Source: an uncultured bacterium (GTDB lineage: Bacteria; Patescibacteriota; Minisyncoccia; Phycocordibacterales; UBA9973). From it: a stretch of DNA of 64,000 bases. Shown piece by piece: positions 4,485-62,636 of the stretch (its first letter is position 1; each line of letters opens with the position of its first letter). Location: positions 5,967 to 69,966 of the forward strand of contig CAIJZZ010000060.1 of NCBI GenBank assembly GCA_903825255.1, read 5' to 3'. A model generated the notes under the pieces. The model ran no database searches. It was not told where the DNA came from and worked only from the letters and a program-made list of their open reading frames with translations. Made by a program: the position numbers and the translations under genes.

Positions 4485-6380
4485 ATGAAATTCAGTTACA
4501 ATTGGTTGCAAAATTATTTTAAAGAAAAATTACCGAGCCCGGAGGAAGTTGCGGAAGGGATTATTTTTCATTCTTTTGAAGTAGATGAAATAGAAAAAGT
4601 GGGGGATGATACTATTTTTGATATAAAAATCTTACCTGACAGGGCACATGATTGTCTTTCACATTGGGGTGTGGCAAAAGAAATCGGAGCGATTTTTAGT
4701 TTGGAAATTTTTTCACCAAATGGCTTTTTTCAGGTCCTCGGTTCTCCTTCGTCTGCTTCGCAGACTCGGCCAGACCATTCAAAAAGCCATATTGGTTCAG
4801 AATTAGAAATTAAAATTGAAGATAAAAAGTGTTTGCGTTATATGGGGAGAATTGTGAGAAATATTAAGATAGGGGAAAGTCCAGAATGGCTCCAAAAAAA
4901 GTTGAATGCGATAGGGCAAAAATCTATAAATAACATTGTCGATGCGACCAATTTTGTGATGTTTGATTTAGGTCAGCCGATTCATGCTTTTGATTTAGAT
5001 AAATTGGCCAGCGAAAAAATAATAATTAGAAATGGAAAGATGGGAGAAAAGATTACCACTCTTGATAAAAAAAATATTGATTTAGATGAATCAATGCTAG
5101 TAATAACAGATGAAAAAGAACCTTTAGCTATTGCTGGGATTAAGGGTGGAAATAAAGCAGAAGTTGATGTAAATACAAAAAATATAATTATAGAGGTAGC
5201 AAATTTTGAAGCTATTAGTACCCGAAGGACTGCTAAGAAAATAAATATTTTAACTGACGCAGTAAAAAGATATGAAAATGAAATTTCACCAGAACTTTGT
5301 GAAATAGTTATAAAAGCAATAACTGATTTAATTTATAATTTAGCAGGTGGAGAAATAGAAGAAATTGTTGATATTTATCCACAAAAACAAGAGCAAAAAA
5401 ATATTATTATTTCTGTTGATTACATAAATAAAAGACTTGGGACTTCTTTTACAAAAAGTGAAATTGAGAGTGTTTGGAAAAAATTAAATTTTGAATATAT
5501 TGAAAAGCAGGATGAATTTGAAATAAAAATACCATTTTTACGTATTGATCTTATCGGGCCACATGATTTAACAGAGGAAGTTGTTAGAATTTTAGGCTAT
5601 GAAAAAATCGAAGAAAAAATACCAGAAGTAAAATATGAAAAAGAAATTAATAAAAATTATTTTCAGACGCTTTCTGTTCGAGAAAAACTTTTAAATGAAG
5701 GCTATAGTGAAGTGATGACTTATGCTTTTAGGGATAAAGGAGAAGTAGAAGTATTAGCTTCAGCTTCCGATAAAAAGTTTTTAAGAACTAATTTAACTGA
5801 TGGGTTAAAAGAAAGTTTGAAGTTGAATCAGCTCAATTTGCCATTTTTAGAAATGAAGGAAATTAAAATTTTTGAAATTGGGACAATATTCAAAAAAGAC
5901 TCAGAAGAAATACATGTGGCATATGGTGATAAAAAAGAAATAAAAGAAATGAGCCTGGAAGATTTTTGTAAGAACGCCGAGCCTAATGCTTTTGTTACGT
6001 CTGAAGCACCGTATGTCTTTTCTGAATGGTCTGGCCGAGCCAAAGGCGAGGAGGACCGAGGACCTGAAGAAAAGATTTACGGCGCGGAAAATAAATTTAA
6101 AATGTGGTCTGTGTATCCATTTATTTCTCGTGATGTTGCCGTGTGGTTAGGAGAAGGAGAAGACCCAGAAAAATTAAAACAAATTTTAATTAAAAATGGC
6201 ACGGAGCTTTTAGTTAAAGAACCTTATCTTTTTGATTCATTTACTAAAGAAGGGAAAACGTCTTATGCTTTCAGGCTTATTTTCCAATCATATGACAGGA
6301 CTCTCACTGATGAAGAGATAAATCCAATTATGGTAAAAATAAAACAAGAAATAGAGAAAAAAGGTTGGCAAATTCGTTAG
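4485..6380 (+). CDS. pheT: phenylalanine--tRNA ligase beta subunit (631 aa, shortened)
   Basis: MKFSYNWLQNYF start typical of PheT. B3/4 motif DATNFVMFDLGQPIHAFD. C-terminal FISRDVAVWL...SYAFRLIFQS domain. Lies directly after pheS. Contains two GC-rich in-frame insertions (see repeats). Confidence 0.9.
   Translation: MKFSYNWLQNYFKEKLPSPEEVAEGIIFHSFEVDEIEKVGDDTIFDIKILPDRAHDCLSHWGVAKEIGAIFSLEIFSPNGFFQVLGSPSSASQTRPDHSKSHIGSELEIKIEDKKCLRYMGRIVRNIKIGESPEWLQKKLNAIGQKSINNIVDATNFVMFDLGQPIHAFDLDKLASEKIIIRNGKMGEKITTLDKKNIDLDESMLVITDEKEPLAIAGIKGGNKAEVDVNTKNIIIEVANFEAISTRRTAKKINILTDAVKRYENEISPELCEIVIKAITDLIYNLAGGEIEEIVDIYPQKQEQKNIIISVDYINKRLGTSFTKSEIESVWKKLNFEYIEKQDEFEIKIPFLRIDLIGPHDLTEEVVRILGYEKIEEKIPEVKYEKEINKNYFQTLSVREKLLNEGYSEVMTYAFRDKGEVEVLASASDKKFLRTNLTDGLKESLKLNQLNLPFLEMKEIKIFEIGTIFKKDSEEIHVAYGDKKEIKEMSLEDFCKNAEPNAFVTSEAPYVFSEWSGRAKGEEDRGPEEKIYGAENKFKMWSVYPFISRDVAVWLGEGEDPEKLKQILIKNGTELLVKEPYLFDSFTKEGKTSYAFRLIFQSYDRTLTDEEINPIMVKIKQEIEKKGWQIR
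4720..4790. repeat. GC-rich element bounded by inverted repeats (long variant), in frame in pheT, forward orientation
   Basis: Perfect 10-nt terminal inverted repeat ATGGCTTTTT / AAAAAGCCAT. Core contains GGTCCTCGGT ... GTCTGC-TTC-GCAGAC hairpin ... GGCCAGACCA. Encodes FFQVLGSPSSASQTRPDHSK. Confidence 0.7.
6016..6075. repeat. GC-rich element bounded by inverted repeats (long variant), in frame in pheT, reverse orientation
   Basis: Termini TCTTTTCT / AGAAAAGA. Its reverse complement reads CAGGTCCTCGGTCCTCC...CTCGGCCAGACCATTCAG, colinear with the 4720-4790 copy. Encodes SEWSGRAKGEEDRGPEEK. Confidence 0.7.
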
Positions 6381-14030: not shown

Positions 14031-14726
14031 ATGATTCAATTTTCAGATTTTGAGAAAAAAACAAAAATAGTTTTCAAAGATAAGGATTTATTAAAACAAG
14101 CTTTTATTCATCGTTCTTATATAAATGAAAATGGGGCGACTGGATTATCACACAATGAACGTTTAGAATTTTTAGGTGATGCAGTACTAGAATTGATTGT
14201 GACTGATTTTTTATATAAAAAATATCCAAAACACACTGAAGGAGAGTTGACGGCACTTCGCTCGGCACTCGTGAATGCAATTATTATTTCTGAAATTGCT
14301 TCAAAAATTGGCATGAATGAATTTTTACTCTTATCAAGAGGAGAAACAAAAGATACGGGGAAAGCGAGGCAATACATCTTAGCGAATACTTATGAAGCCT
14401 ACGTCGGAGCAGTTTACTTAGATCAAGGTTATGATGTAGCCAATAGTTTTATTACTAAATCACTTTTACCAAAAACTGAAGAAATCGTCGCAAAAAAACT
14501 TTGGCGGGATGCGAAAAGTCTAGTACAAGAAAAAGCACAAGAATTTGTTAATTTTACCCCAGCTTATAAGGTTTTAAGTGAATCAGGGCCAGACCATGAT
14601 AAGCATTTTAATATTGGAATATTTTTTGGACCTGATTTAATTGCTGAAGGAAAAGGTAAATCCAAACAAGAAGCAGAACAAAAGGCGGCTGAAGCAGCAT
14701 TAAAAATAAAAAATTGGCTAGATTAA
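14031..14726 (+). CDS. rnc: ribonuclease III
   Basis: ERLEFLGDAVLE signature. C-terminal dsRBD (GPDHDKHF...GKGKSKQEAEQKAAEAAL). Confidence 0.93.
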   Translation: MIQFSDFEKKTKIVFKDKDLLKQAFIHRSYINENGATGLSHNERLEFLGDAVLELIVTDFLYKKYPKHTEGELTALRSALVNAIIISEIASKIGMNEFLLLSRGETKDTGKARQYILANTYEAYVGAVYLDQGYDVANSFITKSLLPKTEEIVAKKLWRDAKSLVQEKAQEFVNFTPAYKVLSESGPDHDKHFNIGIFFGPDLIAEGKGKSKQEAEQKAAEAALKIKNWLD

Positions 14727-25166: not shown

Positions 25167-25751
25167 ATGAAACATCCAAAAGAAGAACAAACATATGTCA
25201 TGATTAAACCAGACGGTGTTCGAAAAGGTTTAACTGGCGAAATTATTAAGCGTTTTGAACAACGTGATTTAAAGATAGTCGCACTTGAAATGTTCCAACC
25301 AGGACATGAGCAACTAGACAATCATTATCCTAAAAACGAAGAATGGATTACTAGACTAGGCCACAAAACTCTCACTACTTATGAGAAATATGGTTATGAC
25401 GCGATGCTGGATTTCGGAACGATTGATCCTGTGGTAATTGGTCCAGAAATTAGAAAATGGCTTATTGATTATATGAAAACCGCTCCACTTGTAAAAATGA
25501 TAGTACAAGGCGTGCATGCAGTAGATGTAGTACGTAAAATTGCTGGCCCAACGATGCCATATTTAGCTGAAGTAGGTACAATTCGCGGAGATTTTTCAAT
25601 CGATTCACCCGCACTAGCCAATAAAGAAAAACGCGCAGTAATGAATATTATTCATTGTTCAGAAACTCCTGAAGAAGCAGCTCATGAAATCAAGCATTGG
25701 TTTGGTGATGTAAAAGTTTGTGACTATAAACGTTTTGGTGTTGATGAGTAA
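25167..25751 (+). CDS. ndk: nucleoside-diphosphate kinase-like protein with ~45-aa insertion
   Basis: YVMIKPDGV, IIKRFE, GTIRGDF, NIIHCSE (His retained; Cys replaces the usual Gly). 194 aa versus ~140-150 typical. Confidence 0.75.
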   Translation: MKHPKEEQTYVMIKPDGVRKGLTGEIIKRFEQRDLKIVALEMFQPGHEQLDNHYPKNEEWITRLGHKTLTTYEKYGYDAMLDFGTIDPVVIGPEIRKWLIDYMKTAPLVKMIVQGVHAVDVVRKIAGPTMPYLAEVGTIRGDFSIDSPALANKEKRAVMNIIHCSETPEEAAHEIKHWFGDVKVCDYKRFGVDE

Positions 25752-30107: not shown

Positions 30108-30193
30108 AAAAGGACGAATATAAAAGTTTTCTGGTAAGCAAGACGAAGCCAGTGCTTACAGGCGAAAACCTTTATATTCGTCCTTTTTGTATT
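30108..30193 (+). terminator. unusually long hairpin (24-bp stem, 23/24 paired) plus T-tract after the KH gene
   Basis: AAAAGGACGAATATAAAAGTTTTC (30108-31) pairs with GAAAACCTTTATATTCGTCCTTTT (30164-87). The 32-nt loop has its own GTAAGCA/TGCTTAC stem. Followed by TTTTTGT. Confidence 0.5.
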
Positions 30194-30213: not shown

Positions 30214-30930
30214 ATGCGTTTTCATATTATTACAATTTTTCCAGACATCTTTGATTCATATTTAAATGAGTCTATTCTTGGGCGGGCGATAAAAGAAAAG
30301 CATGTTTCTGTTAAATTTTATAATCCACGGGATTACGTAAAAGCCCAAAATAAGAACAATTACAAACCCGTAGATGATCGGCCTTATGGCGGAGGCCCTG
30401 GGATGGTGATGCGACCAGAACCTATCTTGAAAGCAGTAGAAAAGGCTATTTCGACGATTAGCAAAATTTCTTCGGGTCCTCGGTCTGGGGCCAGACCAGC
30501 TCAGAAATTTTCTAATCGTCTCAATAAAAATAAAATTCAAATTATTAATTTTATTCCAAGTGCTGAGAAGTTTACAACCATTGAGGCAAAAAAAATTTCT
30601 AAAAAATATACCGATATTATTTTAATTTGTGGAAGATATGAAGGGATAGATGCACGAGTAGATAAAATTTTAAAAACTAAAAAATATTCTATCGGAGATT
30701 ATGTTTTGACAGGTGGGGAATTACCGGCGATGGTATTGATTGATTGTATTGCCCGTCAAATTCCTGGGGTACTCGGCAAATATGAATCTCTAGAAGAAGA
30801 GCGGGTATCTTCTAGTGAAGTTTACACTCGTCCTGAAATACTTAAATATAATAATAAAAATTATAGAGTTCCGAAAGTCTTACTCTCTGGAAATCATGCA
30901 GAAGTAGAAAAATGGAAGAAAACTCATTAA
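30214..30930 (+). CDS. trmD: tRNA (guanine37-N1)-methyltransferase
   Basis: PYGGGPGMVM, ICGRYEGIDARV, IGDYVLTGGELPAMVLID, LLSGNHAEVEKWK. Carries an in-frame 49-bp repeat element. Confidence 0.93.
   Translation: MRFHIITIFPDIFDSYLNESILGRAIKEKHVSVKFYNPRDYVKAQNKNNYKPVDDRPYGGGPGMVMRPEPILKAVEKAISTISKISSGPRSGARPAQKFSNRLNKNKIQIINFIPSAEKFTTIEAKKISKKYTDIILICGRYEGIDARVDKILKTKKYSIGDYVLTGGELPAMVLIDCIARQIPGVLGKYESLEEERVSSSEVYTRPEILKYNNKNYRVPKVLLSGNHAEVEKWKKTH
30463..30511. repeat. 49-bp GC-rich palindromic mini-element, in frame in trmD
   Basis: Perfect 9-nt terminal inverted repeat AAAATTTCT / AGAAATTTT. Core GGGTCCTCGGTCTGG-GG-CCAGACCAGC. 43/49 identical to the reverse complement of 62241-62289. Confidence 0.8.
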
Positions 30931-51190: not shown

Positions 51191-54100
51191 ATGGGGGATA
51201 TTTTACCAAAAAAAACAATAGATCAAAAAGAAGGACTTATTCCTGAAAATATTGAGGTGAATGATAGTGTAAACAAGGAGAATAAGATTATAGAAAATTC
51301 AGAAAATTCAGAAAATTCAGAAAAAATTCTTGAAAAAATTGAGCCTCTTTTAGTTGAAGTAGATCAAATAAACTCTGAAATTGAAGAAAAAAGTGACGGC
51401 CTTTTGGAAAGTATAAAAAATCCTATTTTAGTTGAGAAAGAAAATAGTATTTTAGGAGAGCTTTATCAAAAAGGTGAAAATTTTCTCAAATTAATATCTA
51501 GGCAATTAGCAAGCTATCCTAAAGGAGTTGCAGAGTCTTTCAAAGATAAATATATAAGTAAAAAATCTAATCGTTTATATAATCGTCTTTATAGTAACAA
51601 AGCGATAAGTGAATATACAAATTCACATTCTCGAAAAGAAGAAGCGATCCGTTCTTTTGATTATATATATAAAAGTTCTTTACCACTTTTGAATACTATT
51701 GAGAATGGTTTTTGGGGAAATTCCAAAAATAAGTCTGAAACTATTTCATATGTAAATTCTTCATTATCAATAATTAGCAGACAAGGTATTTCACTAGAAA
51801 AGTATGATGAAGTTTTTAATATTCTTAAGATTTATGAAAACAGCCGAACACTATCTGATGAAAATAAAAATCAACAGAATACCTTTTCAAATATTACTAC
51901 AGAGCTAAGTAAGCATTTATATAGCAAAGAAAACGCTACTGAAGCTGATGAAATTTCTAAAGTATGTAGAAATGATCCATATTTAATTATTGATTATTTA
52001 AAAAATAATTATATTGATGAAAATAAACTTAATCAACAAAAAAATTCAAATTTTTTAGAAGAGCAAGTGGATAAAATAATCGAAGAACATACTGAAAATA
52101 GTCACTGCAATCAGTTTGTTTTAAGTTCTTTTGAAAAAGTTTTAAAAGCGAATCCTGAAAAATATGGATTGGATATTAAAAATAGGGAATTTATTTTTGA
52201 AAATTTTAAAATTGATAATTTTGAAAATTCCTCTAGTAATTATTTAATAAATAATAGTCCCTTTTTTAAAAGGGAGCTTGATAATTTAACAGAAGAAGAT
52301 CTTGATAAATTAATAGGATCTTATACTAGTTATGGTATAAAAGAGGGAAAAGTGCAACTTTTATTATCTTCTACGAATCTACAAGAAAAAGATTTTAAAA
52401 ATATTTTTAATAAAGTTAAAGGTTTTTCTGAAGAAGAAAATGATTATTCAAAAGAAAAATTACTAGAATTATTTAAAAATAACCCAATAATACCATTTTT
52501 AAAATATAAAGAATTTAACTTAAAAACAGAAGACCGAATTGATTTTTTTGAAAAAATTATGGGATTTATGGATAATCCTTTTTTATTTTTAACAAAAATT
52601 CTTTCTGAATTTAACCTCCTTTCTAAGGAAATTCCCGAAGAAAAGTTTGATGAGCTTTTTCAAAAACTTCTTGAAAAATCAATGACTGGCGAAATTAAAG
52701 AAATTAGAGCATTACATGCCTTACTCCCAGCATACGATGTTCCTGCTAAATATAAAGAAATGATTAATAAAGCCTTTTCAGAAGAATATTCTGAAGGAGG
52801 CGGTGCCACTAGAATTAGTAGGATTTTTAGTGAAGAAAATAATTCTCTACAACTTTCTAAGCAGGAAAAATGGCTCAAAGGCAATGCCGTGCTTGCGCCC
52901 AATTTAGAAATTGGGTTTTATAATTCTGGTGACATGAATACTCTTAGGCACTTTTTTTTCGATGTGATAGAAGGAAAAAGACAATCTATAGATAAGGATT
53001 TGCTAATTAAAAAATATGCCGAAAGAATTTACCAAGTTGAGCCAGAAGAAATCATTGATCTTTTTATTATTAGGAAAAAGCTTCCCATGTCTTATTTAGA
53101 TGCATTTTCTGCTAAAATCCAGGATCATGATACAGAAAAGTTGTTTTTACAGTTAGAGGACTGTCTTCGCTTGAATCAAATATCTCAAGCAGAATATAAA
53201 AAAGTATTAATTAGCTTAATAAATAATGCCTATTATGTCGTTGCTGAAAAGTCGCTGGATCGTTCCAAAGAAATTCTTAATCAAGATGAAATAAAAGAGT
53301 TATCTTTAGGTTTTATAAAAAATATAGTCAAACAAGTTGCAAATAAGGATAATTACAGTCGTCCTGATGCTAATAGTCTTCGTAGAATTATTGAATCAAA
53401 ATTTTATGATTCACCTACTATAACTCAAGAAGACAAAAAAATTTTTACCAACAAGCTCTTTGAGGAACTTATTAGCTATAAAAATTTAAATAATGAAATA
53501 TTAGAAATAGTTGATCAAAATAAGGATTTATTTAAAACAGCCTTTGACGATGATAAAAAGAGAGATGATTTTGTCGGTAAATTATTAACAAGCAATGATC
53601 ATCGAGCAATTAGTAATTTGATTGATAGTTATTTATCTGAAATTAAAACTGAAAAAGAATTTAAAAATCCAATTAATCTATCAATCGATGAAGAAAAATT
53701 CAAATCATTATTTAAACACGGTTTATCTTTAGATGATTTAGAAATAGACAATGCTTTAATTGTTAATTTTAAAGCTCTTTCTAAGGAAGAACAAGGGATT
53801 GTAATAAAAAATTTATTGGCTAAGGAAGATATCTTAAGAAATTCTAATGGAGATACAATACGAAATTTTTGTTCTAATATGGTTAATGTTACCCAAAACG
53901 ATAAAATAAATGAAGGAGAAAATAGGATTATCTCAGAAAATGATGCCCAAAATATTTTTTCTAAAATATTTTTTAATAAATCCATAAATCCACAAGTCTT
54001 TAATGATTTAATTTATCATAAGAAAGGATTTTTGACTGAGAATAAAAATATTTTAAATGAATATATTTCAGCTATTGAATTAAAAGGGAGTAGTAATAAT

Positions 54101-56434
54101 TGTTTATCAGCTTTAGAAGAACTAAAATCTACGGAAAAACCAGTTCTTTCAGTGGAGCAAGTAAAGAGTCTTTCTATCGAATTACTAAAAAATAGAAACT
54201 TAGATAAGAATCTTTATCAAATGTATCTAGATTCAACTCCAGATAATTTACAGTTTTATTTAGATCAGGAAATTTTTGATCAAAACATATATAGTATAAG
54301 TATCAACGGCAATGATATGACTACCTCTATTCTTGATTTTTTGGAATTAGAAAAAAAAGTTAAAAATGAAGGTAAGAATGTTATTACTTTAAATGAAAGT
54401 CAAGAAGAGTCGATTGTAGAAAAAATATTAAATTATAATGGAATAAATAGTTCAAATTTTGAAAAACTTTATGATATTGATCAAGAATTATTTTCTGATT
54501 CATTAAAAAATGCATTAAATAAACAAAAAATAGGTGAAGATCCGCTTATGAGTCTTATTAATACCAAAGAAGAAATTTCAAAAGTTTTTGCTTCTGAAAT
54601 CATCGCATATTATTTTAATTATAGAAATAATCGAAAAAATGTATTTGATTTAATTTGTGATAAATATTCATATAGTCCCGAGTTCTTGAAAAAAATAAAG
54701 GAGTATGTTAATAATTTAGGAAACAAAGTAGATCGTTCAGTTTTTAAATCAAAACTTTTACAGAAAGACTTACTTTCTGGAGAAGAACTCAAGGCTTTTT
54801 ATGAAGAAATACGCTCCGAACCGGATTTACAATCCCAAGTGCTTCTTTCAGCTGAAGTGTTGGGTTCCTTGTCTTATACTGGTGACAAAGAAAAAATAGA
54901 TAAAATTTTTGGACCAGAAGAAGTAGAAACTAAAAAAAATCTAGAATTTATTTCTTCTTTTGTTAAAAAATATCCTTTACAAAACAAAGGTAGGACTATT
55001 GCTGTAATGCTTTTTTCTAAAGAATATTTACCTGACAGAAGTATTGGAGAAATAGTAGAAAAAGTGGCTGGTAGACTTTCTAAATATGAAAGAGTTTTAG
55101 AACAATATCAATATAAAGGTATTCCAGCTGGCTTAAAAGCTTCTGTAGGCCTTGAATATGAGATTACCCACTCAACAGCAAATGGTTATAAGGAGTTAAC
55201 TAATCGTGATTTAAAAACAGATATTGTGAGACTAAGTGAAGCAGCTCATATAGGCAATGGAGCAGATGCTGTGCATGAAATAGCTACTCGACCTACTGAT
55301 GAACCATATTTACTTTTCTTAGAAATGCAATTGTTAAATGATTTGGAATATATTGATTTGAATTTTGAACGCTCACCCGAATATCAAAAAGGGGCTAGGG
55401 GCTATCATTTGACTATTGGCGGAGAAACGGGTCTTTCTGTAAATGCAAATACTAATTTTCTTCAGAATTCTATTTTAAGTGCTGGTTGGGGCGGAATATA
55501 TGCTGGTGAAGTCGGCAAAAGGGTTTCTGGTGGACGAGGAGTGACTTTAAGAGGTAGAAGTCCAAATGACGGTCACAATGTTAAGGTTTTTGATAATCCA
55601 ACTTATTCGGTTGAATTAAGGTCTTTATCTATTGATAAAATAGAACCACTACAGCGAGCTATTTCAACTGCTTATAATGGAGCTATCGCTATTCAAGCCT
55701 TAGAAAAATATACAGATTGTTCTTCTGATACGATTAATGATTTTTATGAATCAAATTCTGTAAAAAGTAGTGAAAAGGAATTTATGGAAAAACTTAAAGA
55801 ATCTTCTAAATTAAAAGATGGTTATGATTCTGATCCAAAAAATATAAAAATTATTTATGCTTGGGCAGAGTTAGTGGCTGAAACTAAAGAGGCACTCGAA
55901 TATCATAATAATGAATTTTTAACTGGAGAAACACTCGGCTATTTAAAAAAAGATGGGGTATGGGTAGACTCCGAAGATTTCGGAGGAAATTATAATAGAA
56001 AACGTTTTGACTCTGTAGTTTCTTCAATTGATTCGACTTTATCAGTAGAAGAATATGTAAATTCAACTAAAATTGATTTTAATAAATTATTTTCTAGTTT
56101 TGATGTGGATCTAGCTGATAGTTTAACAAAGGTAAATAATTTATATTTAAAACCCGGTAGTAGAGAATCTGGCGATGAAAAAAATAAGAAAGTAAAATTA
56201 AGTGGTGACCAAGCAAATACAATCTCAATGTTGGAAGTTACAAAGTTTAATAATGAAAATCTTGAACATCGAGATGAGGCTGCCTATCTCAAGGGTACCG
56301 TATTTGATACTTTAGGTGAACGTCGAGAAGGATATTATTATGTTCAAGGGGGAAGTGAAAAAATGATTACCCATGCTTGTCAGATAGCTCTTTTGAATTT
56401 TAATAAAAAAATGGAAGAAATTTTAAAGAATTAA
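51191..56434 (+). CDS. giant hypothetical protein (1747 aa) with C-terminal glutamine-synthetase-like amidoligase signature
   Basis: Uninterrupted 5.2-kb ORF. About 1300 aa of Asn/Lys/Glu/Ile-rich, mostly helical-looking sequence. Residues ~1310-1500 contain VGLEYEI...GADAVHEIATRP...RGYHLTIGG...SVELRSL. Confidence 0.6.
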   Translation: MGDILPKKTIDQKEGLIPENIEVNDSVNKENKIIENSENSENSEKILEKIEPLLVEVDQINSEIEEKSDGLLESIKNPILVEKENSILGELYQKGENFLKLISRQLASYPKGVAESFKDKYISKKSNRLYNRLYSNKAISEYTNSHSRKEEAIRSFDYIYKSSLPLLNTIENGFWGNSKNKSETISYVNSSLSIISRQGISLEKYDEVFNILKIYENSRTLSDENKNQQNTFSNITTELSKHLYSKENATEADEISKVCRNDPYLIIDYLKNNYIDENKLNQQKNSNFLEEQVDKIIEEHTENSHCNQFVLSSFEKVLKANPEKYGLDIKNREFIFENFKIDNFENSSSNYLINNSPFFKRELDNLTEEDLDKLIGSYTSYGIKEGKVQLLLSSTNLQEKDFKNIFNKVKGFSEEENDYSKEKLLELFKNNPIIPFLKYKEFNLKTEDRIDFFEKIMGFMDNPFLFLTKILSEFNLLSKEIPEEKFDELFQKLLEKSMTGEIKEIRALHALLPAYDVPAKYKEMINKAFSEEYSEGGGATRISRIFSEENNSLQLSKQEKWLKGNAVLAPNLEIGFYNSGDMNTLRHFFFDVIEGKRQSIDKDLLIKKYAERIYQVEPEEIIDLFIIRKKLPMSYLDAFSAKIQDHDTEKLFLQLEDCLRLNQISQAEYKKVLISLINNAYYVVAEKSLDRSKEILNQDEIKELSLGFIKNIVKQVANKDNYSRPDANSLRRIIESKFYDSPTITQEDKKIFTNKLFEELISYKNLNNEILEIVDQNKDLFKTAFDDDKKRDDFVGKLLTSNDHRAISNLIDSYLSEIKTEKEFKNPINLSIDEEKFKSLFKHGLSLDDLEIDNALIVNFKALSKEEQGIVIKNLLAKEDILRNSNGDTIRNFCSNMVNVTQNDKINEGENRIISENDAQNIFSKIFFNKSINPQVFNDLIYHKKGFLTENKNILNEYISAIELKGSSNNCLSALEELKSTEKPVLSVEQVKSLSIELLKNRNLDKNLYQMYLDSTPDNLQFYLDQEIFDQNIYSISINGNDMTTSILDFLELEKKVKNEGKNVITLNESQEESIVEKILNYNGINSSNFEKLYDIDQELFSDSLKNALNKQKIGEDPLMSLINTKEEISKVFASEIIAYYFNYRNNRKNVFDLICDKYSYSPEFLKKIKEYVNNLGNKVDRSVFKSKLLQKDLLSGEELKAFYEEIRSEPDLQSQVLLSAEVLGSLSYTGDKEKIDKIFGPEEVETKKNLEFISSFVKKYPLQNKGRTIAVMLFSKEYLPDRSIGEIVEKVAGRLSKYERVLEQYQYKGIPAGLKASVGLEYEITHSTANGYKELTNRDLKTDIVRLSEAAHIGNGADAVHEIATRPTDEPYLLFLEMQLLNDLEYIDLNFERSPEYQKGARGYHLTIGGETGLSVNANTNFLQNSILSAGWGGIYAGEVGKRVSGGRGVTLRGRSPNDGHNVKVFDNPTYSVELRSLSIDKIEPLQRAISTAYNGAIAIQALEKYTDCSSDTINDFYESNSVKSSEKEFMEKLKESSKLKDGYDSDPKNIKIIYAWAELVAETKEALEYHNNEFLTGETLGYLKKDGVWVDSEDFGGNYNRKRFDSVVSSIDSTLSVEEYVNSTKIDFNKLFSSFDVDLADSLTKVNNLYLKPGSRESGDEKNKKVKLSGDQANTISMLEVTKFNNENLEHRDEAAYLKGTVFDTLGERREGYYYVQGGSEKMITHACQIALLNFNKKMEEILKN
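51293..51329. repeat. in-frame 9-bp tandem repeat (GAAAATTCA)x3 plus a degenerate 4th unit
   Basis: Encodes ENSENSENSEK near the N-terminus of the giant ORF. Confidence 0.8.
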
Positions 56435-56449
56435 TATCAAAATGAAATA

Positions 56450-57757
56450 ATGCAATTTAAAATTGAGAAAAAGTTAAAAGGAAGTTTAGGGAGAGTGGGG
56501 AGGTTAGAAACTCCGCATGGGGTTATTTTGACACCGGCTTTTGTGGCGGTGGGGACGAAAGCGACCATCAAATCTTTAAATCCAGAACAAGTGCGTGATG
56601 CTGGTTCACAAGTGGTGCTTGGCAATACTTATCATTTATTTTTACAGCCAGGTGATGAGATAGTGCGTGGTGCTGGTGGTATTGGAAAATTTATGAATTG
56701 GACAGGGCCCACGATGACCGACTCTGGCGGTTTCCAAGTTTTTTCACTCGGAGCGGCTTATGGTAAAGATATTTCCAAAATTACTAAAATTACAGATCCG
56801 TCACTTTTGATTCCTGAGCGTTTTGATGACAGTGATGCACCACGACTTGCGAAAATCGGAGAGGATGGAGTTTCTTTTAAATCACATTTAGATGGGAAGA
56901 TACATTACATTACTCCGGAGAAATCAATTCAGATTCAGCACAATTTAGGCGCAGATATAATTTTTGCTTTTGATGAATGTACGAGCCCGACAGAGGATTT
57001 AAAATATCAAGAAGAAGCACTTAATAGGACTCATAAATGGGCAGAGAGAAGTTTAAAGGAACATCTTAATTTGGAAAATTCAAAACAGCTGCTTTCTCAC
57101 GGCTCGCCCCACAACCTGACAATGGTTAACGAACGTAATATTGCGCAGGCCGAAGAAAGCACTGTTTTAAATTTTTCACAGGCATTATTTGGTATAGTGC
57201 AAGGAGGGCGCGAAGAAGGTTTACGAAAGAAATCTGCAAAAATAATTTCTGAAATGCAGGTAGATGGCAAAAGTTTTGATGGTTTTGGAATTGGTGGATC
57301 TTTTGCTAAAGAGGATATGTCGACAGCTGTAAAGTGGGTGAATGAAATTTTACCAGAAGAAAAACCTCGACACTTACTTGGTATTGGCGAGCCAGAAGAT
57401 TTATTTATGGGAATAGAAAATGGTGTAGACCTTTTTGATTGTGTGCTTCCGACACGATTAGGAAGAAATGGTACGATTTACACGAAGCTCGGTAAAATAA
57501 TTATGACTAATAAAAAATATCGGGATGATTTTACTCCGATTGAAAAAGACTGCGTTTGTTACACTTGCACACATTATACTCGCGCTTATATAGCACATCT
57601 TTTCCACGGCAAAGAAATGTTGGCTGGTACTTTGGCATCACTACACAATTTATTTTTCATAAATAATTTAGTTTCAAAAATTCGTCAGTCTATTATCGAT
57701 GATGGTTTTTTTGAATTTAAAGAAAATTTTTTAAAGGATTATCAAAAAAGTGTATAA
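56450..57757 (+). CDS. tgt: queuine tRNA-ribosyltransferase
   Basis: TPAFVAVGT, LGNTYHL, TDSGGFQVFSL, IIFAFDEC, ALFGIVQGG, LLGIGEPEDL. Zn site CVCYTCTHYTRAYIAHL. Carries a ~100-bp in-frame insertion. Confidence 0.93.
   Translation: MQFKIEKKLKGSLGRVGRLETPHGVILTPAFVAVGTKATIKSLNPEQVRDAGSQVVLGNTYHLFLQPGDEIVRGAGGIGKFMNWTGPTMTDSGGFQVFSLGAAYGKDISKITKITDPSLLIPERFDDSDAPRLAKIGEDGVSFKSHLDGKIHYITPEKSIQIQHNLGADIIFAFDECTSPTEDLKYQEEALNRTHKWAERSLKEHLNLENSKQLLSHGSPHNLTMVNERNIAQAEESTVLNFSQALFGIVQGGREEGLRKKSAKIISEMQVDGKSFDGFGIGGSFAKEDMSTAVKWVNEILPEEKPRHLLGIGEPEDLFMGIENGVDLFDCVLPTRLGRNGTIYTKLGKIIMTNKKYRDDFTPIEKDCVCYTCTHYTRAYIAHLFHGKEMLAGTLASLHNLFFINNLVSKIRQSIIDDGFFEFKENFLKDYQKSV
57074..57176. repeat. ~100-bp element bounded by inverted repeats, in frame in tgt (second family)
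   Basis: Left arm GAAAATTCAAAACAGCTGCTTTCT. Reverse complement of the right arm is GAAAAATTTAAAACAGTGCTTTCT (~23-nt imperfect terminal inverted repeat). GC-rich interior CACGGCTCGCCCCACAACCTG...GCGCAGGCCG. Confidence 0.65.
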
Positions 57758-62212: not shown

Positions 62213-62240
62213 AATTAATAAAAATAAAAAACAAAAATAT

Positions 62241-62289
62241 AAAATTTTCAAGCTGGTCTGGCTCCAGACCGAGGACCCGAGAAAATTTT
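62241..62289. repeat. 49-bp GC-rich palindromic mini-element, intergenic copy (reverse orientation relative to the trmD copy)
   Basis: Perfect terminal inverted repeat AAAATTTTC / GAAAATTTT. Core CTGGTCTGG-CT-CCAGACCGAGGACCC. 43/49 identical to the reverse complement of 30463-30511. Followed by a T-rich run. Confidence 0.8.
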
Positions 62290-62335
62290 ATATTTTTTTA
62301 ATTGCTTTTTTAATATTTTGTTTTATAATCAAATT

Positions 62336-62626
62336 AGCCTTATATTGGATAACTGCTCCGCTTACAGCGGGGAGGAAAGTCCGAACACACAGTCTTGACG
62401 TAAGTCTAGACAAACGTAGCGGGTAATGCCCGTCGGGAGCAATCCTAGAGTTGCGAACAGTGACGAACCGATTTAGTTCGGGTGAAACGGCAAAATACTT
62501 ACGCGTGTGCAAGATCGTGTCCTGATGTAAATCAGGAAGAATCGCTTGAGCCTGTGAGTAATTACAGGCCTAGATAAATAGTTGTCACCCTTCGGGGTAC
62601 AGAATTCGGCTTATAGATATAAGGCT
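62336..62626 (+). ncRNA. rnpB: RNase P RNA (bacterial type A, compact)
   Basis: P4 halves GGGGAGGAAAGTCCGAACAC and ACAGAATTCGGCTTAT. GCTTGAGCC...GGCCTAGATAAAT block. P1 pairing AGCCTTATAT (62336-45) with ATATAAGGCT (62617-26). ORF 62288..62512 (-) is therefore spurious. Confidence 0.93.
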
Positions 62627-62636
62627 AAAAAATGAA

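Follow-up and report, generated by a model that had tools for sequence, protein, structure and literature searches.

We identified a hairpin-forming element of 103 nt within tgt, the gene for tRNA-guanine(34) transglycosylase, in a 64,000-nt stretch of DNA from an uncultured bacterium of the Patescibacteria (termed here the window, with positions counted from its first letter). The element, complete at 57074-57176 on the forward strand, belongs to a family (family A) with further copies at unrelated genic and intergenic loci of related genomes, and is probably a non-autonomous, selfish dispersed repeat of Paceibacteria, comparable to the Rickettsia palindromic elements (RPEs) and to transposable elements of the miniature inverted-repeat kind (MITEs), that is translated as a passenger loop of its host protein. 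The host gene is an open reading frame (ORF) of 435 aa (56450-57757, forward strand) with homologues that match PF01702 and are named Tgt, and it matches solved Tgt structures at E = 1.9e-90. Its closest relatives are the Tgt of metagenome-assembled genomes (MAGs) of Paceibacteria/Nomurabacteria, members of the candidate phyla radiation (CPR/Patescibacteria).

A preliminary description of this DNA, made from the sequence alone, had proposed an imperfect inverted repeat around a GC-rich interior, inserted in frame between the KWAERS helix and the ALFGIVQGG block of Tgt, and all of these features were confirmed. The arms of the repeat, 57074-57097 (GAAAATTCAAAACAGCTGCTTTCT) and 57154-57177 (AGAAAGCACTGTTTTAAATTTTTC), are 24 nt each and 71% complementary without gaps, and more so if two 1-nt indels are allowed. 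The segment 57074-57176 folds as one long hairpin of -21.4 kcal/mol (DNA parameters; z = -3.5), a stability reached by none of 200 shuffled sequences, and its interior (57098-57153) has a G+C content of 55%, against 37% in the rest of tgt and 33% in the window. The element is in frame in tgt, where residues 209-243 read ENSKQLLSHGSPHNLTMVNERNIAQAEESTVLNFS, and sits between WAERS (197) and ALFGIVQGG (245); translated, the insert would yield peptides such as SHGSHSNLNVVNESNIAYAEESTS. The inverted repeat and the fold agree with a covariance model of the family (R1), which, run over the window with its filters off, gave one true match, at exactly 57074-57176 on the forward strand (100.1 bits, E = 8e-22).

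That the segment is an insertion follows from three comparisons. Against the solved Tgt of Z. mobilis, window residues 203-243 (41 aa) stand in place of residues 184-195 (12 aa), a segment that directly precedes the strand ALFGIQQG, so that the insert maps to the loop just before the strand ALFGIVQGG. Short or empty loops were identified in 14 of the 120 closest Tgt orthologues, which are about 80% identical, and among tgt loci fetched from metagenomes (the segment was located in 80 of 81 sources, all but L033) the commonest short state in CPR is the 26-aa WAxRSLxEHxKLNxENKIALFGIVQG, a span over which the window has 56 aa. Finally, in one pair of loci (L097 and L098), tgt DNA that is 92.8% identical differs by 72 nt, the core being either cleanly present or lost, between two copies of TTTCTCAC. 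After the loss, the outer stem is left as a short hairpin footprint, which explains the existence of alleles of intermediate length.

The insert is not an assembly artefact, since a contig from an independent lake metagenome run (X4) spans the whole of it without an indel, and a 96%-identical Tgt protein of separate source has this insert too. The DNA runs searched for the stretch contained low-depth fragments of it only. We additionally observed that short-read unitigs from two metagenome runs of the source lake (X1 and X3) break at the hairpin (window 56951-57146), so that assemblies are fragmented by such elements.

The loop of tgt is a hot spot of hairpin DNA. It is exactly the sole hypervariable stretch in the alignment of the 120 orthologues and, as a check suggested in the preliminary description has now established, it is not conserved as protein. 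All of the longer alleles are rod-like hairpins at the DNA level, and the inserts fall into at least six unrelated core families, which are interleaved on the Tgt similarity tree. Frame is nonetheless kept across the site, with no stop codons, in all 80 tgt loci in which the segment was located. Composite inserts occur as well, for example family A followed by another element. Loops of this sort were identified in eight Tgt orthologues (P0049, P0054, P0109, P0003, P0026, P0059, P0107 and P0065), and comprise family A with another element, family A partly duplicated, family C with a further element, and a core of one family between arms that belong to a different one; their make-up suggests serial or nested insertion at this one site. 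At empty tgt sites, a weak AT-rich complementarity of 7 bp is seen in some loci as a possible pre-existing hairpin, inconsistently. We considered the peptide families A, C and D at this site as three reading frames of one DNA element, and rejected this, as their DNA cores are unrelated.

Family A is not confined to tgt. A scan of a genome collection with a two-arm pattern, for which we estimate about 0.005 chance matches, recovered 17 copies, distributed over 16 contig stretches that all came from Patescibacteria MAGs, and with nhmmer and the covariance model added the count rises to 28 distinct copies in Paceibacteria/Nomurabacteria DNA, spread over seven or more kinds of site. Five copies from outside the set used to build the model scored 95-114 bits over the full model length. 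Besides tgt, the family occupies two sites in mnmA (the first, between ATGHYA and KGxDxxKDQSYFL, in four genomes, and the second in three), two sites in leuS, a site in a 353-aa methyltransferase-like ORF, and five intergenic places with no spanning ORF, one of them directly after a stop codon (L088). The intergenic copies have no common position relative to genes, and at least two copies were found in each of four genomes. The proposal that the insert is a repeated element therefore stands, with the same core in mnmA, leuS, the methyltransferase-like ORF and intergenic spacers of related genomes; within the 64 kb of the window, its 24-nt arm has no further match with up to 3 mismatches allowed. 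The segment thus has other copies and is not conserved among Tgt as protein, the two points on which the preliminary description had staked its reading.

All genic copies of family A lie in one orientation and one frame, encoding the peptide LLSHGSHSNLNVVNExNIAYAEEST. Of 23 copies, 20 are open in this frame, and the five remaining frames are mostly interrupted by stop codons. Family A was not found beyond the tgt site in about 1 Mb of tgt neighbourhoods, nor in viral contigs; a profile of the doubled 28-aa peptide, searched against a protein database for other hosts, retrieved nothing at E <= 1; and Rfam yielded no family at the gathering threshold for the element in the window, and none up to E = 10 around it.

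The window element aligns without gaps to 22 other copies of family A, and the alignment divides it into a core and an outer stem. The left inner arm of the core (57090-57107; TGCTTTCT, a bulge CA, CGGC, T and CGC), which corresponds to the invariant or covarying alignment columns 17-34, pairs with the right inner arm (57143-57161; GCG, three unpaired positions, GCCG, A and AGAAAGCA). Between them lies an apical region of 35 nt (57108-57142), which in the window is of subtype 1 (..AACCTGA..GGTTAACGAA..TAATATT), one of two sequence subtypes among the family-A copies. The apex is 35 nt in every copy recovered by a search pattern permitting 25-50 nt. The core as a whole, an imperfect palindrome of about 76 nt with conserved bulges and a fixed length, is the conserved unit of the family. 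Around it lies an outer stem of 10-22 bp that is perfectly paired and different at each locus; in the window its left arm (57074-57087) overlaps the host-like codons ENSKQ and pairs with its right arm (57163-57176), which encodes TVLNF and has no counterpart in short-loop orthologues (all of these parts are given on the forward strand). The outer-stem columns vary between loci yet remain complementary. Among different genomes, the outer stems at the tgt site show a recognisable relationship, with arms that overlap host-like codons (KLENxK) and with paired substitutions that keep complementarity through vertical descent. The sequence GAAAATT, taken in the preliminary description for an element terminus resembling that of another family, belongs to this locus-specific stem, and as the outer 10-22 bp differ at each locus we discard that comparison.

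Column analyses were made on the ungapped alignment of 23 family-A copies. Conservation of family A is at the level of nucleic acid, not of protein. Entropy by codon position is 0.67, 0.54 and 0.54, with no codon periodicity and no third-position relaxation. The 70-nt core has a mean identity of 0.80 between tgt copies, against a mean of 0.51 at the third codon positions of the host gene, and core identity is the higher of the two in 45 of 45 pairs of tgt copies. Nor do the cores cluster by insertion site: a tgt copy and the methyltransferase copy, for instance, are 95% identical, and the core with its asymmetric, non-palindromic apex is 83-96% identical across unrelated loci and genomes.

These data make it very unlikely that selection acts on the insert as protein, in the form of a functional Tgt loop specific to the lineage, for example as a surface for docking a partner or tRNA. 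Such a loop would be always in frame and stop-free, as is seen, and a similar peptide is present in 42 of the 120 closest orthologues; however, the pattern of conservation takes no account of codon position, the same peptide occurs in MnmA, LeuRS and the methyltransferase-like ORF and the same DNA between genes, and in orthologues about 80% identical the peptide is replaced by unrelated ones or absent. The site, moreover, precedes a barrel strand, which by the topology of the (beta/alpha)8 barrel would put the loop on the barrel face opposite to the active site.

The hairpin itself is maintained by compensatory changes. Its consensus comprises 29 pairs, and 97.3% of cells are paired, compared to 41-51% when the partners are slid by 1-3 columns. 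Changes on both sides were identified at 19 pairs (129 cells), and none of 500 shuffles reached these values. Watson-Crick pairs fill 640 of 667 cells (96%), G-U pairs 9 and A-C mismatches 6; on these small numbers, G-U being no commoner than A-C, complementarity of a DNA type or templated copying fits better than selection on RNA.

Strong covariation, together with a conserved core and bulges, would also be anticipated if the hairpin were a host-selected signal in mRNA or DNA, recruited repeatedly and kept by structural selection, such as a site for RNase III or other processing, a pause in translation or folding, or a signal for replication or recombination. The locus-specific outer stems of the tgt site stay paired over long vertical descent, and RNase III is encoded in the window (14031-14726), both of which accord with this. 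We nevertheless judge it unlikely: the same loop holds many unrelated cores, or is short or empty, so that no single signal can be required there, G-U pairs are not favoured over A-C mismatches, the intergenic copies share no position relative to genes, and a long perfect duplex in essential mRNAs would be expected to do harm if cleaved.

Templated copying bears on another explanation, in which hairpins arise locally and independently by template switching during replication and nothing moves between sites. Template switching makes and extends inverted repeats (PMC8794818, PMC13100816), and the outer stems are indeed locus-specific, with no target-site duplication. For the core, this is contradicted by 76 nt with an asymmetric apex being 83-96% identical at unrelated loci. 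As an account of the whole element we give it very little credence, and local template switching stands only as an explanation of the outer stems.

The kept frame bears in turn on whether the segment might be an intron-like element excised from the RNA, or be passed over by programmed translational bypassing, as with the byp elements of yeast mitochondria. A GC-rich hairpin in an AT-rich coding region does resemble mitochondrial GC clusters and byp elements. Removal or bypassing would not require frame to be kept, whereas frame is kept and stops are absent in all genic family-A copies and in the 80 located tgt loci, and there is no Rfam match; this explanation is scarcely credible.

We therefore favour a selfish dispersed repeat of the RPE or MITE kind, and envisage its history as follows. 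The core would be the unit of family A that is copied, spreading as a DNA hairpin through a trans-acting activity or recombination. Genic copies would survive only in the one stop-free orientation and frame, and only where about 30 extra hydrophilic residues are harmless, which in Tgt would be the loop before ALFGIVQGG; there the insert is predicted to be translated as a passenger loop. Template switching from one arm to the other, as the element is replicated, may both preserve the perfect pairing of the outer stems and lengthen these into the flanking DNA; it is a documented source of new inverted repeats, and of their homogenisation and expansion (PMC8794818, PMC13100816). Copies can be lost by slippage between short direct repeats and their sites then recolonised, and copies within one genome exchange sequence by gene conversion.

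Sequence exchange between copies is seen in mnmA. Across four genomes (L083, L084, L086 and L092), family-A copies occur at two sites in this gene. The site-2 copy of L086 holds the entire site-1 hairpin, including its outer stem, and is a case of ectopic gene conversion, the site-1 hairpin having replaced the site-2 sequence. The outer stem at site 2 is a distinct one in L084 and L092, and in L092 the site holds a different sequence. The core subtype is common to the copies within a genome, and the same site carries different subtypes across genomes.

Several observations weigh against a mobile, translated element. Neither an nhmmer profile nor the covariance model finds a second family-A copy in the window, no transposase gene, of the HUH/Y1 or DDE type, is present among the 50 ORFs of the window, and no target-site duplication, in the form of direct repeats, flanks any of 24 copies. 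Mobility is thus deduced from the distribution of the family alone, with the defining mechanics of MITEs missing, and where sites are orthologous, their copies could date from old insertions, with gene conversion maintaining their likeness, and not from recent transpositions. As to translation and placement, none of the RNA runs searched contains the stretch, and an AlphaFold2 model built on an alignment of 26 sequences was set aside, since its quality (mean predicted local distance difference test score 47.7) did not suffice for locating the loop.

Of known systems, the RPEs are the nearest. These elements of about 150 bp form ten families and are often fused in frame within unrelated genes (PMC10969869). 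They share with the elements described here a palindromic repeat of about 100-150 bp, the existence of several families in a small AT-rich genome, and positions both between genes and within unrelated housekeeping genes, often in frame there with a conserved encoded peptide; the RPE peptide is believed to be accommodated at the surface of the protein (PMC10969869). A palindromic hairpin unit, multiple genic and intergenic loci and an in-frame conserved peptide are all found in family A. The host phylum is different, and the likeness is one of function, by description; RPEs also differ in that here a locus-specific paired outer stem of 10-22 bp surrounds a core of fixed length, and one gene loop is reused by many families. 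We know of no report of locus-specific outer stems or of multi-family loop reuse for RPEs.

The MITEs (such as Correia, ERIC and Nezha) are likewise small, non-coding, multi-copy, bounded by inverted repeats and able to form hairpins, sometimes lie in frame within genes, and have no transposase of their own. In contrast to these, target-site duplications are absent here, there is no parent insertion sequence or transposase among the 50 ORFs of the window, and terminal inverted repeats are not conserved between copies: it is the inner arms that are conserved, and the outermost 10-22 bp that differ at each locus.

The repetitive extragenic palindromes and bacterial interspersed mosaic elements (REP/BIME), mobilised by the REP-associated tyrosine transposase (RAYT), an IS200/IS605-like Y1 enzyme, are imperfect palindromes with conserved bulges and are thought to be recognised as single-stranded DNA hairpins. 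With these our elements share the lack of target-site duplication and the compensatory changes in the stem. REPs, however, are of about 20-40 nt, extragenic, and have a conserved 5' tetranucleotide and a RAYT gene nearby, whereas the present element is of 103 nt, its family is mostly intragenic, and there is no Y1/HUH domain in the 64-kb window.

Mitochondrial GC clusters, double-hairpin elements, the repetitive hairpin-forming elements of sponges and the byp elements are all GC-richer mobile hairpins that invade AT-rich compact genomes. As in our case, coding regions are invaded, and by several families repeatedly; in contrast, these elements are organellar, and byp elements, over which the ribosome hops, are under no need to keep the frame that is always kept here. 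PMC2800124 is among the literature on such elements. Lastly, inverted repeats made by template switching account for arms that are perfectly Watson-Crick and specific to their locus, and for 'compensatory' changes of several bases, with no need of selection (PMC8794818, PMC13100816), and differ in being a mutational process, not an element, one that leaves the shared asymmetric core unexplained.

The genomes of CPR bacteria are tiny and consist largely of housekeeping genes, and mobile elements are believed to be few in them. We found nothing relevant on such elements in CPR/Patescibacteria in the literature, of which our coverage was incomplete, so that this is absence of evidence only; hairpin elements of this kind have apparently not yet been described in CPR. 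In-frame hairpins in tgt, mnmA, leuS, uvrB, pheT and trmD would constitute a second, independent case like that of Rickettsia, and much of the length variation of conserved CPR proteins may come from hairpin elements. Such elements can mislead protein alignments, phylogenies and domain calls, and the Pfam matches of TrmD and Tgt are split by them. The locus-specific outer stems are a natural record from which the maintenance and extension of palindromes in bacterial genomes can be studied, and offer a handle for finding the mobilising activity.

The preliminary description had called the tgt insert the second of two families, and a further family is present in the window; the other family that it meant is probably the one with the core GGTCCTCGG..GCCAGACC, here named the second family. 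The window contains four copies of it, and an outer stem of its own surrounds each. One lies in frame in trmD (30447-30526, forward strand; gene at 30214-30930), in which the Pfam TrmD match is split into two stretches. Two are in pheT (4485-6380): copy 1 at 4715-4797 on the forward strand, in frame, and copy 2 at 6006-6085 on the reverse strand, in the opposite orientation and still in frame. The fourth is intergenic (62233-62297, reverse strand), just upstream of the RNase P RNA (62337-62629). The second-family core also fills the tgt loop in five loci of other genomes (L015, L016, L055, L057 and L072), and families other than A have extra copies in the same contigs, between genes or in frame in large ORFs, including uvrB. 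A conserved core within a locus-specific, perfectly paired outer stem is the architecture of both window families and of every family at the tgt site, and this shared architecture, not the termini, points to a common mechanism of the families.

A more far-reaching possibility, which we put forward only tentatively, is that CPR carry a population of hairpin elements with many unrelated cores that integrate by a route not yet described, either by insertion into the apex of an existing hairpin, or with the target flank being copied in inverted orientation at integration. Either variant would explain the locus-specific paired stems, the lack of target-site duplications and why different families have repeatedly taken up the same loops (tgt, uvrB and mnmA). 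Hairpin elements would then be a main source of loop length variation in the housekeeping proteins of CPR.

We made several further observations on these families. In UvrB, the loop after RPTGLIDPEIIxKPVSA holds three families in three genomes (L053:9089-9179, L048:4475-4513 and L058:9566-9653), and forms, in addition to the tgt loop, another hot spot of several families. Family B (GGGGTCGCTGTCT..AGCGCTGCCTCTCGGCTCGTCAGCCTGCGAGACACCCC) was identified in the tgt inserts of L007, L011, L012, L017, L021 and L041. It folds as a branched structure, with an inner stem that covaries (GGATC/GATCC, ACGCC/GGCGT and CCGC/GCGG) around a conserved TGCT loop, and L021 has a second, in-frame copy elsewhere in the same tgt gene (L021:1313-1395). 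A third kind of hairpin lies in the window at 30108-30187, between a KH-domain gene and trmD, with arms of 24 nt that are 96% complementary and a core of CTGGTAAGCAAGACGAAGCCAGTGCTTACAGG; a similar arm (GAACGAATATAAAAGTTTTC) adjoins an intergenic family-A copy in L081, at about 2560. Folding the window in successive overlapping segments gave a signal too noisy to add further elements to those described.

Elsewhere in the Tgt of the window, residues 103-132 (56756-56845) form a 30-residue segment (AYGKDISKITKITDPSLLIPERFDDSDAPR) that is common to all of these CPR Tgt and missing from that of Z. mobilis; unlike the hairpin loop, it is conserved as protein. Directly upstream of tgt lies a 1747-aa ORF (51191-56434) without a Pfam match at E <= 1e-5, and in related contigs it is MreC, not this ORF, that is found directly upstream of tgt. 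Finally, the ORF for nucleoside diphosphate kinase (25167-25751; 194 aa) has a Pfam match that is split in two, and may hold another insert.

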